Of a DNA stretch of 64,000 nucleotides, positions 654-39,515 are shown one piece after another. The stretch's first letter is position 1. Each line of letters opens with the position of its first letter. The DNA comes from Candidatus Babelota bacterium (lineage in GTDB: Bacteria; Babelota; Babeliae; Babelales; Vermiphilaceae): the NCBI GenBank assembly GCA_049325595.1, contig JBMOLF010000015.1, positions 160,001 through 224,000 on the forward strand, written 5' to 3'. The position numbers were made by a program, and so were the translations under genes. The notes under the pieces are model-generated. The model worked only from the letters and a program-made list of their open reading frames with translations, ran no database searches and was not told the origin of the DNA.

Positions 654-1610
654 CTAAATATTATTTGACTGTAAAAAATCATTTAATTTACGCTCTGGCG
701 CTGCTTCAATACGCTTCATGCGCTCAATGTCCCCCAGATATACTTCAGTAGTCGTTGGCGCAGTATGCCGCATAGCAAGCTGTACTTCATAAAGTGATGC
801 TCCAGCTTGCATGGCCATTACCCCAAAGGTGTGTCTCAAGCTATGGGCCGTAATGCGTGTGCTTACAATGCCAGCATCACGCAAGCGATTTTTTATAATG
901 CGGGAAAGAGAATGAATGGTAATGCGTCTGCCATAATTGCGGTCTGAAAGAGAACTAAATAATGGATCTTTGGTAGAAATTTTTTGCCGCGCTTTTAAAT
1001 AATCTCTAATGGGCTCATAGGCTTCGGGAGTTAATAATACAAAATCATCTTTACCATCGCGCGCCTTACCGCGAATCCATAACAAAACATCAGTTTCAAA
1101 ACTCATATCGGCAATATCAGCCCGCTTAATTTCAATTAAGCGCAGGCCAGTTCTTATGAGTAAATTAATAAGTGCGTAATCTCGTTTGCCAACAAGTGTT
1201 GTACGATCGATAGATGATAATAATATTCTAATTTGTCCTACGGTAAGCGCATTTTTTTGGTGGCTTTTAACTTGCTTTTTTGCGCCCTTTATACCGCGCG
1301 CAATGTTGGGATACATTTTAATGGTCTCGGTCCATTCAAAAAATTTTCTTACCACTACTAAATAAGCAGAGCGGGTAAATGGACGCAAGCCTTTAAGATC
1401 CAGGCTTTCTTTGTAGGCTAAAATAGTTTCTCGTGTGGGATTGGCATGAGTAGTTTGAGCAAACCAGATAAAAAATTGCTTGAGAGCATTGCGATAAGAA
1501 ATGCGTGATGTTTGTGTAATATCTTGCGCTGCGATAAACTGTTCGAGTAATGCTTCAAATTGTGAAAATGGTATTTGGCTTACTGCATTGTTATGCTCCA
1601 CTAACTCCAT
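654..1610 (-). CDS. Tyrosine recombinase (XerC/D or integrase family)
   Basis: Catalytic residues: RTGLRLIE, RGK, HSLRH, MRH, EVY; N-terminal SAM-like domain. Confidence 0.9.
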   Translation of the reverse strand: MELVEHNNAVSQIPFSQFEALLEQFIAAQDITQTSRISYRNALKQFFIWFAQTTHANPTRETILAYKESLDLKGLRPFTRSAYLVVVRKFFEWTETIKMYPNIARGIKGAKKQVKSHQKNALTVGQIRILLSSIDRTTLVGKRDYALINLLIRTGLRLIEIKRADIADMSFETDVLLWIRGKARDGKDDFVLLTPEAYEPIRDYLKARQKISTKDPLFSSLSDRNYGRRITIHSLSRIIKNRLRDAGIVSTRITAHSLRHTFGVMAMQAGASLYEVQLAMRHTAPTTTEVYLGDIERMKRIEAAPERKLNDFLQSNNI

Positions 1611-1640
1611 ACCATTGCTCTCCTTTACAAAAGGTACTTA

Positions 1641-5653: not shown

Positions 5654-5905
5654 TTAGAGCTCGAGGCCCAATACCTTTTTTTTTGCAACTTTACGTTTAG
5701 CACCAGTACGTTTGGTTGCAGCACGTTTTGTAGTTTTACGTGCGCCACCGCGGCGTGCAGCTGTTTTTTTACGTGCAGTTGTCTTTTTAGCTGCAGTTTT
5801 TTTTGCTGCCCCTTTTTTAGCGGTGCTTTTTTTAGCAACTTTACGTTTAGTCGTTGCTTTTTTAGCTACAGTTTTTTTTGCAGTAGCTCTTTTTTTGGTT
5901 GCCAT
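5654..5905 (-). CDS. Histone H1-like nucleoid protein (Hc1/Hc2-like)
   Basis: 83 aa, almost only K/A/T/R, xxAKK pentapeptide repeats, KRKVAKK twice; strong RBS AAGGAGAG. Confidence 0.85.
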   Translation of the reverse strand: MATKKRATAKKTVAKKATTKRKVAKKSTAKKGAAKKTAAKKTTARKKTAARRGGARKTTKRAATKRTGAKRKVAKKKVLGLEL

Positions 5906-6026
5906 TGTACTCTCCTTTTTTAATGGTTACAACCATCTATCATTTACAATTACAATTGTACAAAATTTAAATTTTAAAAATCAATAACTGAAGAAACAAT
6001 TTTTATTTCAACCGTTAAAAAAACTA

Positions 6027-14333: not shown

Positions 14334-15410
14334 GTGCAATTGCAACGCCTTACTATCAAAAATTTTCGCTGTTTCGAGTCTTTAGAGCTTAATTTTGGCA
14401 ATGCTATAATTTTCATCGAGGGACTCAATGGTTCGGGAAAAACCTCTATTATAGAGGCGTTGCATTATTTATGCTATCTTCGCTCATTTCGAACTTCAAG
14501 CTCATCTGACTTGCTTCAGTTTGATACTCAGACTTTCTTTGTAAAGGCTGAGATTAAAAATAACGACATTATAGATGAATATCATTCTATTCAAGTAGGT
14601 TTTAAGGGCAAAAAAAAGATCGTTCGCGTTAACCAGAAAGCGGTCAACTCCTATAAAGATTTAATGCATTTTTACCGGGTTATAACCGTTACCGAAGACG
14701 ACCTTGAGCTTATCAAGGGTTCCCCAGAAGCACGTAGAAATTTTATCGATCATGTTATTATTCTTTATAGCCCAGATTTTGCCCAATCTGTTCGTCGCCT
14801 TAAGCATATTGTAGAACAACGTAATGCTATTATCATGCAGGGCAAAAAAGATGCTACCGAATTTGCTATTTGGACTCAGCAGCTTTGGCAGGTTTCCCAG
14901 CATATAAAGCAGTTGCGCAAAGAAACGTTAGTTCAACTTGAGCAGGAAATAGGGGTACTTACCCAGGCATACTTTCCTGATATTGCTATTCAGTTTCATT
15001 ATACCAGTAAATCCAATCAAGACGCGTACGAGCAATTTTTTACAGAAAATTCATCATTATTCGCTCAAGAAGAGCGCCTGGGGCGCTCCTTATTTGGCGC
15101 ACATTTAGATGATTTTTCGGTAACTTTTCAGCAAAAAAAATCTAAGATTTATGCATCACGAGGTCAACAAAAATTGGTTATCATGCTGGTAAAAATTGCG
15201 CAAATGAAGTGGCTCTGCCAACGCAAGGGCCCTGCAATCTTCCTTCTTGATGATTTTATGACTGATTTTGACCGTCAAAAGGGTATTCAGCTTCTCAAGC
15301 CGCTTTTAGATATGAGCAATCAAATAATTATAACAGCACCAGGCACCAATCAGTGGTTAGCCCAAGAATTGCATTCTTATGGTTGTACTTATATAAATCT
15401 TACAGAATGA
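14334..15410 (+). CDS. recF: DNA replication/repair protein RecF
   Basis: NFRCF, GLNGSGKTS, RSFRT, SRGQQK, FLLDDFMTDFD; follows dnaN. Confidence 0.93.
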   Translation: MQLQRLTIKNFRCFESLELNFGNAIIFIEGLNGSGKTSIIEALHYLCYLRSFRTSSSSDLLQFDTQTFFVKAEIKNNDIIDEYHSIQVGFKGKKKIVRVNQKAVNSYKDLMHFYRVITVTEDDLELIKGSPEARRNFIDHVIILYSPDFAQSVRRLKHIVEQRNAIIMQGKKDATEFAIWTQQLWQVSQHIKQLRKETLVQLEQEIGVLTQAYFPDIAIQFHYTSKSNQDAYEQFFTENSSLFAQEERLGRSLFGAHLDDFSVTFQQKKSKIYASRGQQKLVIMLVKIAQMKWLCQRKGPAIFLLDDFMTDFDRQKGIQLLKPLLDMSNQIIITAPGTNQWLAQELHSYGCTYINLTE

Positions 15411-15450
15411 ATATTTTATTATAAATAAAGCATTATTATTTTTTACTGTT

Positions 15451-15479
15451 TTGACAAACATAAAAATTATCTATATAAT
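15451..15479 (+). promoter_or_regulatory. Consensus sigma70 promoter
   Basis: TTGACA (15451-15456), 17-bp spacer, TATAAT (15474-15479). Confidence 0.8.
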
Positions 15480-15485
15480 GTTTGT

Positions 15486-15691
15486 AATGATATTTGAAAA
15501 AAGATTGTTAAAACAACATTTATTGACATAAAATATTTGACTTTTTTGTAATATCATTTAATTTAATTCTTAGAATCTATAGTCAAAATATAAAAATAAC
15601 TTATGGACTATAAGAAATTTTAATTAGGCTTCATTACTACTCTCCTTTTTTCCATCGCATTGATTTCGGTCAGTGCGGTGGAATTTTTTTT
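15486..15691 (+). ncRNA. Putative small regulatory RNA (~205 nt) with anti-Shine-Dalgarno seed
   Basis: Perfect promoter upstream; 5' hairpin (15486-15503 with 15541-15558); second hairpin (TATAGTC/GACTATA); unpaired CATTACTACTCTCCTTTT; terminator; no substantial ORF. Confidence 0.65.
15650..15691 (+). terminator. Intrinsic terminator with UUCG tetraloop
   Basis: TTCCATCGCATTGAT-TTCG-GTCAGTGCGGTGGAA (15 bp with G-U pairs) plus T8. Confidence 0.85.
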
Positions 15692-15996
15692 GCTTATTTA
15701 CCATTTTTTTCAATACGATATAGATCAGCTCATGTGTATAAGCAAAGACCTATTTATTTAGTTAGTTATTCGTATAGTGGTCTTTTTTCTATTACTAGTA
15801 GTAAGACGTTTAATTGGTTAGTAAATTTGTGTGGGTTTTTACGCAGAGATAAATAAATGCCTTCCTTTATAAAGAATAATATAATTAAAACCGCAAAAAA
15901 TTGATTCATCAATAATTTGATTCATCAATGTTCATAAAGTCACGGTCCATCCATCTTCAAATTTTTACATAATGAGCATTATCGGAACATTTTTTG

Positions 15997-16464
15997 CTAA
16001 TTAGCATACGAAAGTACAAATACTGGTACCTGCTTGAGCCCTTCTTTAACTGCCTGATAAAAATAGGTATACCAAAGCTGCTCATTTAACAGTGAAGTTA
16101 GTTCAATCCAAATAAAATCACAGTTAAATTCTTCGCATAAAAAATCTTGCATAGTTTTTTTGGAAGTTGTATCTAAATATCCATAAGCCAATAATGAATT
16201 ATATAGATCAATAATTTCTGGTTCTAAATTATGATTATCTAATGATAAACAACCGATTGCTTGGTAACATCCTAAAGACCTTAACAACATTTTCATTATA
16301 GAGCGTCCAGCTAATGTATCTTTAACTAATATTTGATGTATTCCTGGCGTAAGCATTAATGAATGCCCAGCAATAATATTTTCTTCTTTTGCAAGCCCTG
16401 ACAAAAAACTATAATTAAATGCTTTATTAGTAGTAAATACCGACGACGAGCGCTTTAACATCAT
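15997..16464 (-). CDS. Hypothetical protein
   Basis: ORF downstream of ruvC; start placed at ATG 16464 after AAGAGGAA. Confidence 0.6.
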   Translation of the reverse strand: MMLKRSSSVFTTNKAFNYSFLSGLAKEENIIAGHSLMLTPGIHQILVKDTLAGRSIMKMLLRSLGCYQAIGCLSLDNHNLEPEIIDLYNSLLAYGYLDTTSKKTMQDFLCEEFNCDFIWIELTSLLNEQLWYTYFYQAVKEGLKQVPVFVLSYAN

Positions 16465-16552
16465 AAGATTCCTCTTTGAATGCGCTTTTATACCATTACA
16501 TCCCCTAACTATCAATCCTACTCTACTTTATTTTATAAAAGAAATGCAATTA

Positions 16553-37994: not shown

Positions 37995-39515
37995 TTACTT
38001 TTTCCAATTCAATGCGACATCAGTTAGCAATCGTACACCAAATCCTGTTGCACTTGCCGGTCTGAAATATGGCACATCTGGTATATCCAGGTCAACCCCT
38101 GCAATATCTAAATGTACCCATGGCACATCATCAACAAAATTCTTCAAGAAATGAGCTGCGGTGATTGCCCCTGCCATGTAACGTGGTGAGCCAATGTTGC
38201 TAATATCAGCAACGGCAGATTTTATTGCTGGCTTATAATCGTCATGCAATGGTAAACGCCATACGCGATCACCGGTACGATTTGAAGATTCTTGTACTTT
38301 AGCAACTAACTCATCATGCTGGCTCATCAAGCCGCAAAAGAAAGGCCCAAGAGCCGCAGCGCATGAACCGGTTAAGGTTGCAATATCAATAATCGCGTCA
38401 ACTTTATAATGTTTTACCACATACGACAAAGCGTCAGCTAAAATTAAACGCCCTTCAGCATCAGTATTTTTTATTTCTGCCGTTTTGCCATTGTAAAAAC
38501 GCGCAACATCACCTGGCTTAATGGCACTTCCACTTGGTAAATTTTCTGAAATCGGCGCTACGGCTATTACGTTAACTTTAGGTTTTAATTCACCTAAGGC
38601 ACGCATAGTAGCAATTACTGCAGCAGCACCAGCCATATCAGCTTTCATAGTTTCCATAGCGTTAGCTGGTTTAATGCTCAAACCACCTGAATCAAAGGTA
38701 ATTCCCTTACCAACAAAAGCGATTATTGGTGCATTTTTATCTTCAGCCTTATATTCCATGATTACTAATTGGCAGTCAAGTTCTGATCCTTTTGCAACCG
38801 CACTTAATCCACCCATGCCCATTTTGTTAATTTCTTCTTCAGAGAAAACGGTAATCGGCATATTATACTTTTTGGCAATCTCACGTGCATGATTTGCTAA
38901 ATTTTCTGGCGTTAATGACGATGGCGGCAAATCAATCCAATGACGCGCATCATTTACCGCAGTGGCAATTACCGTGCCTTTTTCTACTCCCGCTTTTACT
39001 TGTTGCATATTTAAGTCATCAAGCACAAGTGTCACCGTAACTTCTGCAGGAATTTTGCGCTTTTCATCAGTAATAAATAGATCAAAATAATAATGCGCCA
39101 TGGTAATAATGGATGAGGTTTGCTCAGCAAGATATGTTGCATCTACACCAAACCACTCTGGTTTTGGTAATTGAATAGCCAGCGATTGCCACTTATTATC
39201 TTCAGCAAGCCTTACTACTTTACCAAGTGCGCGGCGATAGAGTTCAATATCAATCTTTTTACCATTTTTTTGTGAGCCAAGCCCCATTACTATGTGCCAA
39301 ATAATTTTACCATCATGAACCACGGGAAAACGAACCATAGTAAGCGCTTTTCCGCTAAAATCATGATCAGTGCAAAGCTGTTTAAGCGCAGGGAACTGTT
39401 TTTCTAATAATTGTACACGTGAAGTTTCTAAAAAACCATCTTCAACAAATAATACTCGTGCTTGAGTATAATTTTGTTCTAACAATGGTTTTTCATTGAT
39501 ATGAATCAAAACCAT
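37995..39515 (-). CDS. pepA: Leucyl aminopeptidase (M17)
   Basis: VGKGITFDSGGLSIK, MKADMAGAA, NTDAEGRLILAD, ATLTG, WVHLDIAG. Confidence 0.97.
   Translation of the reverse strand: MVLIHINEKPLLEQNYTQARVLFVEDGFLETSRVQLLEKQFPALKQLCTDHDFSGKALTMVRFPVVHDGKIIWHIVMGLGSQKNGKKIDIELYRRALGKVVRLAEDNKWQSLAIQLPKPEWFGVDATYLAEQTSSIITMAHYYFDLFITDEKRKIPAEVTVTLVLDDLNMQQVKAGVEKGTVIATAVNDARHWIDLPPSSLTPENLANHAREIAKKYNMPITVFSEEEINKMGMGGLSAVAKGSELDCQLVIMEYKAEDKNAPIIAFVGKGITFDSGGLSIKPANAMETMKADMAGAAAVIATMRALGELKPKVNVIAVAPISENLPSGSAIKPGDVARFYNGKTAEIKNTDAEGRLILADALSYVVKHYKVDAIIDIATLTGSCAAALGPFFCGLMSQHDELVAKVQESSNRTGDRVWRLPLHDDYKPAIKSAVADISNIGSPRYMAGAITAAHFLKNFVDDVPWVHLDIAGVDLDIPDVPYFRPASATGFGVRLLTDVALNWKK

Follow-up and report, generated by a model that had tools for sequence, protein, structure and literature searches.

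We analyzed a 64,000-nucleotide (nt) stretch of a "Candidatus Babelota" genome (the window; the source genome comprises 1.29 Mb in 24 contigs, with 35% G+C, and is 95% complete) and found, just past recF, a gene for a small RNA (sRNA) at window positions 15486-15691 (+), which we name sRNA-1. With its promoter, at 15451-15691, it is very likely a genuine conserved sRNA gene, and it is near-universal and mostly single copy in the Dependentiae (TM6/Babeliales), where it is fixed just past recF. sRNA-1 constitutes a new family within a recognized type of RNA, the trans-acting sRNAs that carry complements of both the Shine-Dalgarno (SD) sequence and the AUG start codon (anti-SD/anti-AUG). Most likely, as judged from sequence comparisons, it is a translational repressor resembling the cia-dependent sRNAs (csRNAs) of Streptococcus, with a second conserved RNA, RNA-2, as its decoy or partner. 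We estimate a probability of roughly 60% that sRNA-1 acts by pairing with RNAs that resemble translation start sites.

The gap between recF and the next gene, a convergent open reading frame (ORF) at 15997-16515 (-), had been read in a first-pass annotation, made from the letters of the window alone, as an ORF-free region holding a complete transcription unit for an unannotated sRNA. All of the parts that it named are present (Table 1), including a perfect TTGACA-17-TATAAT promoter that scores 12/12, two predicted hairpins 5′ of the seed, an unpaired stretch, and a 15-bp terminator with a UUCG cap and a T8 tail. The minimum free energy (MFE) fold of 15486-15691 places the two hairpins first, leaves 15628-15649 unpaired, and ends in the terminator. 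In a genome of the same genus, G001 (G denotes genomes, with G000 that of the window and G001 and so on its relatives; C denotes contigs, f families, and L loci), the promoter is identical, and the alignment is conserved from the -35 box through the end of the T-run and decays directly beyond it. The unit has the general features of a trans-encoded sRNA, namely its own promoter and intrinsic terminator, no conserved ORF, and an accessible, conserved seed to which other sites of the genome are complementary. Its annotation as an sRNA gene is backed by its conservation, its promoter, a terminator that covaries, and the absence of an Rfam match. A 14-codon frame at 15488-15532 (+), 1 to 2 nt past the predicted start of the long form of sRNA-1, has equal length in G001 with 4 to 5 amino-acid changes and is probably noncoding.

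No Rfam family reached its gathering threshold anywhere in the window, and a permissive scan of 15300-16000 (E values up to 10) returned nothing, and thus no sRNA family, inside 15451-15691. This search, suggested as a check in the first-pass annotation, gave no match there to a housekeeping RNA such as 6S. We found no 6S RNA (RF00013) in the genome at E values up to 1, and a 6S identity for sRNA-1 was also rejected on structure, as the fold has a free linear stretch and a terminator and is not a closed rod of ~180 nt with a central bubble. We likewise rejected a housekeeping RNA in disguise; the signal recognition particle RNA and 16S rRNA are located elsewhere in the genome. The 3′ end of the 16S rRNA is canonical, and no extended complementarity was found between the seed and the rRNA operon. 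A literature search found no report of a small or noncoding RNA from the Dependentiae.

A BLAST search with 15440-15700 against 41 related genomes gave matches in 37 of them, which represent 15 of the 17 families. In genomes outside the genus, the alignment was confined to the 3′ 72 nt (80 to 99% identity), and the seed at 15628-15651 was near-invariant in the 37 relatives recovered. A covariance model built from 123 sequences, R1, located sRNA-1 in 146 of the 151 genomes drawn from across the phylum (~97%) and in 93 of 96 genera, with no match in families f8 and f17. The core CUUCAUUACUACUCUCCUUU is invariant and is retained even in the most divergent families. The exact seed 23-mer occurs in at least 119 species genomes; among 80 listed records of this 23-mer, 38 are Dependentiae-type taxa and 18 bear Pseudomonadota-type labels, which are unconfirmed and possibly mislabels. 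Sequences gathered via the exact 23-mer necessarily agree at those positions, so that invariance is judged independently from the BLAST and model searches; these bear out the conservation of the seed in related genomes that the first-pass annotation had asked about. By model R1, sRNA-1 is single copy except in families f12 and f7, which have 2 to 3 copies. At one locus (L141, G035:C10:12986-13743), three tandem copies lie ~120 to 210 nt apart, and two of the three have a doubled anti-SD (CUCUCCUUUCUCCUUUUUU).

The flanking elements are conserved along with the seed. Across the 123 sequences, the 13 terminator pairs are 99.5% paired and 12 of them show changes on both sides, a level of covariation that none of 500 shuffles matched and that was destroyed by sliding the partner strand. 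A promoter of the form TTGAC[AT]-N16-19-nAnnnT was found no more than 220 nt upstream at all 121 distinct homologous loci with enough upstream sequence; on the reverse complement, just 5 of the 121 had one. sRNA-1 has a predicted median length of ~113 nt in relatives and is longer (~205 nt) in the genus of the window. Its 5′ part is not conserved in sequence outside the genus, and in 100 homologues this part has a more stable predicted fold than shuffled sequences (mean z, -2.8). At each of the 38 loci with a recF match (29 of 30 relatives with loci), recF precedes sRNA-1 on the same strand, and despite this fixed synteny the RecF proteins of relatives are only 33 to 48% identical.

Such an invariable position after recF, on the same strand, might suggest that the block is no RNA regulator at all but a recF terminator or 3′ untranslated region, a DNA element, or, given a minus strand that reads as a perfect SD followed by AUG AAG CCU, a minus-strand ribosome-binding site (RBS) with a mini-ORF. 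We consider this very improbable. The conserved promoter stands between recF and the core at every one of the 121 loci, with the core 140 to 390 nt past recF; a terminator on the plus strand would account for both the T-run and the compensatory stem; and the element is not palindromic. The minus-strand mini-ORF was rejected because the frame after its ATG is not conserved (it stops at codon 5 in some genomes and runs for at least 14 codons in others) and because promoter, T-run, and stem are all on the plus strand.

The invariant stretch reads as the exact complement of an idealized translation start. Its own complement, AAAGGAGAG-UAGUA-AUG-AAG, comprises an A-rich SD at a natural distance from a start codon, which a Lys codon follows. 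We compared the seed with 1,260 start regions of the genome, 1,259 of them from a crude ORF caller (open frames of at least 300 nt) and one, that of a histone-like gene, added by hand. Three have at least 14 contiguous bases complementary to the seed, namely those of a rhodanese-like gene at C1:92482 (15 nt), a gene at C10:269376 for a 204-amino-acid (aa) exported protein (14 nt), and the histone-like gene (14 nt). Control seeds taken from the start regions of 247 other genes had a mean of 0.26 matches of this length, and only 3 of the 247 reached three. Because it has more such matches than these controls, the seed appears to be an unusually consensus-like anti-start-site, of which the histone match would be one instance. 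Across 41 genomes, non-self matches to the 20-mer complement of the seed numbered 47 with up to 3 mismatches, 12 with up to 2, and 3 with up to 1; two controls in which the 5-nt spacer was permuted gave 19, 0, and 0 and 42, 4, and 1. Individual sites can be close to perfect: in G024, a gene start with a tandem paralogue beside it is complementary to the seed along 24 nt that end in AUG, with one mismatch, and G017 and G035 have sites with 1 to 2 mismatches to the 20-mer, in each case including a gene start with a single mismatch. At the G024 locus (L148, G024:C37:52500-54700), two adjacent, nonhomologous genes for proteins with signal-peptide-like N termini (198 and 223 aa) both start with GGAGAGAAGUAAUGAAG, and the first of them carries the 24-nt, single-mismatch complement of the seed.

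Within the published accounts drawn on here, csRNAs are the closest build to sRNA-1. These RNAs (ccnA-E) have two stem-loops flanking an unpaired anti-SD and anti-AUG (CAU), have been proposed to keep translation from initiating on a number of mRNAs, and are present in multiple copies in some genomes (PMC3091779). Both the fold and the alignment of sRNA-1 have this build (5′ stem-loops, unpaired anti-SD and anti-AUG, terminator), and sRNA-1 occurs in 2 to 3 tandem copies in two families of Dependentiae. It differs in having no sequence or Rfam match to csRNAs, in coming from another phylum, in a promoter with an ordinary TTGACA -35 box, in being mostly single copy and fixed past recF, and in a far longer invariant stretch. 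CiaR dependence is the defining trait of csRNAs. The RsaE and RoxS RNAs of Firmicutes have short C-rich anti-SD seeds, often in loops, and address several mRNAs with no Hfq. The pyrimidine-rich, unpaired anti-SD seed of sRNA-1 with its several predicted mRNAs is similar, but it is U-rich and also has an anti-AUG and an anti-AAG, set at a fixed spacing.

When the whole genome was scanned for duplexes, the strongest non-self site (-31.8 kcal/mol) was not a gene start but lay in an intergenic gap, in what we predict to be a second conserved transcript, RNA-2. Each of the 24 other genera searched within the family has this element with the same neighbors, as do several other families, and it is single copy. 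Its 24-mer, with up to 3 mismatches, was found in 70 of 151 genomes versus 0 for the reversed control, and a gapped pattern matched 63 of the 151 and picked up a diverged form in family f5. Upstream are a conserved TTGC-type -35 box and a TAGCAT/TAGCCT -10 box, 16 to 17 nt apart with a variable spacer; the conserved transcript would begin GAGCUAAGAAGGAAUUGUAGUAAUGAAGC, after which conservation ends, and we propose a 5′ start at GAGCUAAG and a length of ~70 to 110 nt. An SD-like run together with an AUG makes the 5′ end a mimic of a translation start. This end pairs significantly with a downstream pyrimidine run, often then followed by a U-run, at 17 of the 35 loci, and the closing stem has compensatory examples (GAGUCAAG with CUUGACUC and AAGCU with AGCUU). 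No Rfam family matched the RNA-2 loci. A third conserved transcript start, RNA-3 (G000 C9 ~38700-39004 [-]; L274 ~700-1005), has a TTGAGC-17-TAAAGT promoter and shares its first 19 to 20 nt (GAGCUAAGAAGGAAUUGUA) with RNA-2 before diverging; matches of this type (22 to 24 nt at 96 to 100% identity) were second hits in about ten relatives, and the RNA-3 region had only chance-level matches to Rfam.

A 13-mer of RNA-2, GUAGUAAUGAAGC, complements the invariant GCUUCAUUACUAC of sRNA-1 at every position, and in the genome of the window the complementarity of the two reaches 15 nt. Over 70 genomes, 18 of the 19 substitutions in this 13-mer are A to G, at four A positions and recurring in several families; the exception is one terminal C to G. 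Read on the RNA-2 strand, A-to-G changes keep the pairing with the invariant U as G·U, whereas on the opposite strand they would break A-U pairs. This pattern is the best evidence that the two RNAs would pair in cells and that RNA-2 is transcribed from the predicted strand. The predicted duplex averages -29 kcal/mol in 26 genomes, and RNA-2 is on these comparisons the best-conserved putative partner of sRNA-1. Pairs of an sRNA and a sponge are known, such as SroC/GcvB and RosA/RoxS. RNA-2 would resemble these sponges as a second transcript that imitates a target and thereby binds a regulatory sRNA at its seed, but here both RNAs are conserved over many families, and RNA-2 mimics a whole translation start.

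An RNA with an SD-like run and an AUG, folded back 5′ to 3′ in about half of its loci and followed in some genomes by a hydrophobic frame of 19 to 29 codons, could also be a toxic-peptide mRNA held inactive by that fold, with sRNA-1 as the RBS-covering antitoxin of a type I system. We regard this as extremely unlikely, as the frames after the AUG vary from 4 to 39 codons in 26 genomes with no conserved peptide, and hence no toxin ORF was recognized. Moreover, RNA-2 and sRNA-1 are not linked, as they lie on separate contigs or are hundreds of kilobases from each other, and each is single copy with fixed housekeeping neighbors, unlike mobile toxin-antitoxin cassettes.

The first-pass annotation had assigned the RNA a specific task, a switch on a histone H1/HC2-like gene analogous to the regulation of hctA by IhtA in Chlamydia. 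Its sequence matches are real. The two CATT-containing stretches were found where expected, CATTACTACTCTCCTTTTTT at 15632-15651 (+) and CATTGTACTCTCCTTTTTT on the plus strand at 5903-5921, and the seed can form 14 contiguous bp over the SD and 4 bp over the AUG of the histone-like mRNA. The 83-aa product matches Pfam HC2 with an E value of 1e-7 and 32.7 bits (38.1 bits in a second search), under the 40-bit cutoff. The shared 14-mer occurs twice in the window with at most one mismatch, versus 0.09 expected, and none of 100 shuffles reached two. The match exceeds random-sequence chance and is largely explained by an anti-RBS meeting a strong A-rich RBS.

The annotation had also cautioned that the seed is a generic anti-SD with possibly several targets and that its proposal would suffer if many RBSs paired as well or better, and this is what we observed. 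By duplex energy, the histone-like start (-21.7 kcal/mol) ranks 43rd of 1,260, the rhodanese-like gene offers a longer contiguous pairing, and the tyrosine recombinase start, whose 9-nt match had been noted and is present, ranks 29th (-22.8 kcal/mol). The histone-like start is only one among many. Neighboring genes make poor candidates, as dnaN and the other called nearby starts pair poorly (the recF start was missed by the caller). Signal-peptide-like N termini, scored by a crude heuristic, were found in 35 of the top 50 predicted targets versus a 45% background; this enrichment is a weak lead that largely follows from Met-Lys starts and strong SDs.

Among 41 relatives, the protein query revealed histone-like genes in 7 and Pfam HC2 revealed them in 11 (one above the cutoff), although detection of such low-complexity proteins is weak and does not show the absence of the gene elsewhere. 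Nine histone-like start regions pair contiguously with the seed over 14, 13, 12, 10, 9, 7, 7, 6, and 6 nt, retaining only the generic A-rich SD and not the part beyond it. The histone-like gene lies 7 to 10.5 kb from sRNA-1 in six genomes (that of the window, G001, G002, G010, G016, and G023) and 95 kb away in G039, and this proximity seems to reflect conserved gene order in the dnaN-recF region more than any functional tie.

These data make it unlikely that sRNA-1 is a dedicated switch that chiefly blocks histone-like translation until a late, condensing developmental stage. Such a role would fit the rank of this start among the three with at least 14 nt, the long runs in relatives of the same family (12 nt in G001, 13 in G016, and 10 in G023), and the obligate intracellular life of Dependentiae, with IhtA as a precedent (PMC3469542). 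However, pairing shrinks to 6 to 9 nt in G010, G012, G030, and G039, sRNA-1 is found in 37 of 41 relatives versus 11 of 41 for histone-like genes, G031 has a histone-like match and no sRNA-1 match, and the invariant 5′ half of the seed, AGGCUUCAUUAC, is unmatched in the histone mRNA beyond CAU. Of the earlier proposal, the histone-like gene stands as a plausible target in the genome of the window, and the dedicated, specific switch does not. The gene is a candidate target in the genus, neither the only nor the best-conserved partner.

The analogy with IhtA is functional speculation at best and probably reflects neither homology nor specificity. The published descriptions give IhtA as an RNA of ~105 nt with three stem-loops that represses hctA and CTL0322/ddbA, pairing around the AUG and not the SD through 6 to 7 G/C-rich nt of loop 1 (PMC3469542, PMC4355289), and its gene as lying between sctC and tRNA-Thr in the Chlamydiaceae (PMC3469542). 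sRNA-1 is similar in being an sRNA of obligate intracellular bacteria that is predicted to be able to block histone-like translation at the start codon. It differs in its position past recF in Dependentiae, in a linear predicted pairing stretch of 20 to 29 nt that includes the SD (14 nt at the histone-like gene), and in not being specific for the histone-like gene. Because IhtA avoids the SD, uses a short loop, and occupies a different locus in the chlamydiae, the analogy is only speculative.

Several observations weigh against start-site pairing as the action of sRNA-1. In four sequencing runs, contigs from metatranscriptomes cover its conserved part at depths of 2 to 3. One soil-metatranscriptome contig of 151 nt spans 15538-15688 and ends in the T-run, which is weak support, while another RNA-library contig takes in the promoter region and one from a further library extends 94 nt beyond the terminator; the contigs are too shallow to show a discrete transcript or where its ends and strand lie, and DNA or read-through is possible. 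RNA-2 is found in about half of the genomes versus 97% for sRNA-1, so it cannot alone explain the invariance, its strand and ends are predictions, and its closing stem is clear in just 17 of 35 loci. The excess of seed-matching start regions beyond a generic SD, AUG, and AAG is modest and appears only at high stringency. The 24 proteins whose start regions we compared for orthology (the 20 best-matching start regions in relatives, three further loci, and the genome of the window) share no homology except for one G000/G001 pair; no single conserved orthologous mRNA target emerged, as the best-matching genes are nonorthologous bar that pair. No Hfq or CsrA gene was found in the genome of the window, which is 95% complete. 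Finally, pairing alone is not an obvious explanation for a phylum-wide invariance of 20 to 29 nt.

This invariance, which is stronger than usual for pairing seeds, is also the chief argument for a different function, in which the stretch would be mainly a site for a conserved protein (a ribosomal protein, RNase, or chaperone) that the RNA sequesters or delivers. The lack of a conserved orthologous mRNA target would fit such a protein-binding RNA, and near-universal presence and fixed synteny resemble housekeeping RNAs. Yet the stretch reads precisely as anti-AAG, anti-AUG, a 5-nt spacer, and anti-SD at natural spacing, and it has a conserved complementary RNA with wobble-preserving substitutions. 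In addition, no Hfq or CsrA gene was found, the seed lacks GGA repeats, and no partner protein is known. We judge protein binding to be an improbable main function.

The model that we favor, start-site pairing, builds on a computed gene, conservation, structure, complementarities, and substitution pattern, and it predicts transcription, pairing in cells, repression, and a role for RNA-2. sRNA-1 would be a trans-acting, base-pairing RNA with a sigma-70 promoter, a lineage-specific 5′ structure, an invariant unpaired stretch, and a Rho-independent terminator. The unpaired stretch would pair with RNAs that resemble translation starts and bar access of the ribosome, as proposed for csRNAs. One class of partner would be RNA-2, either a decoy (sponge) that titrates sRNA-1 or the main regulated target. 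The other would be mRNAs that have a strong A-rich SD and in many cases encode exported or membrane proteins starting Met-Lys, with the histone-like gene among them in the genus. More doubtfully, and by analogy, the pair could form a phylum-wide two-RNA switch in which sRNA-1, encoded beside dnaN-recF, would silence strong-RBS mRNAs for exported and histone-like proteins, the decoy would titrate sRNA-1, and the two together would gate the change between replicative and infectious forms. Such a switch might be a functional analogue of IhtA/HctA that evolved independently and is global, not gene specific, a notion that we hold just as tentatively.

To our knowledge, base-pairing sRNAs are rarely conserved past the family or order. 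sRNA-1 is unusual in its 20 to 29 invariant nt, its presence in ~97% of sampled genomes of the phylum, and its single gene neighborhood, which suggest a core function, as well as in having a conserved complementary RNA that mimics a start site. The Dependentiae are obligate intracellular parasites of protists with nearly no experimental genetics, and the conserved RNA pair offers a testable handle on their translation control and possibly on their developmental cycle. Covariance model R1 could serve as an RNA-based marker of the phylum and be added to RNA databases as a new family.

Table 1. Coordinates of sRNA-1, its elements, and its candidate partners (window positions unless stated otherwise)
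Feature	Position	Strand	Remark
recF	14334..15410	+	Upstream neighbor of the sRNA-1 gene; Pfam match (SMC_N/AAA)
Sigma-70-type promoter, TTGACA-17-TATAAT	15451..15479	+	Scores 12/12; predicted start near 15486
sRNA-1	15486..15691	+	~205 nt predicted in own genus; both ends predicted
Structured variable 5′ part	15487..15627	+	Hairpins 15487-15557 and 15558-15627; MFE fold
Single-stranded seed AGGCUUCAUUACUACUCUCCUUUUUU	15628..15651	+	Anti-AAG, anti-AUG, spacer, anti-SD; unpaired in MFE fold
Intrinsic terminator, UUCG loop, T8 tail	15650..15691	+	15 pairs, 15650-15683; terminator scan; 13- to 15-bp stem
Histone H1/HC2-like gene, 83 aa, Lys/Ala/Thr-rich	5654..5905	-	Pfam HC2 below cutoff; candidate target
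Histone-like mRNA start region AAAAAAGGAGAGUACAAUG	5903..5921	-	14 contiguous nt to seed plus 4 nt over AUG
Tyrosine recombinase gene (654-1610) start region	1610..1626	-	9-nt contiguous match; candidate target
RNA-2	C7:12523-12600 of the genome of the window	+ (predicted)	Gap between rluD-like gene and convergent PLD-like gene

Two further observations concern the surroundings of the gene. The GC skew of the window gave no clear origin signal near the sRNA-1 locus. In the 300-nt ORF-free stretch that remains past sRNA-1, another hairpin with a T-run (AAGACC...GGUCUUUUUU) lies at 15745-15793 (+), ~55 nt beyond the sRNA-1 terminator; it was spotted by eye and is absent from the list of the terminator scan.

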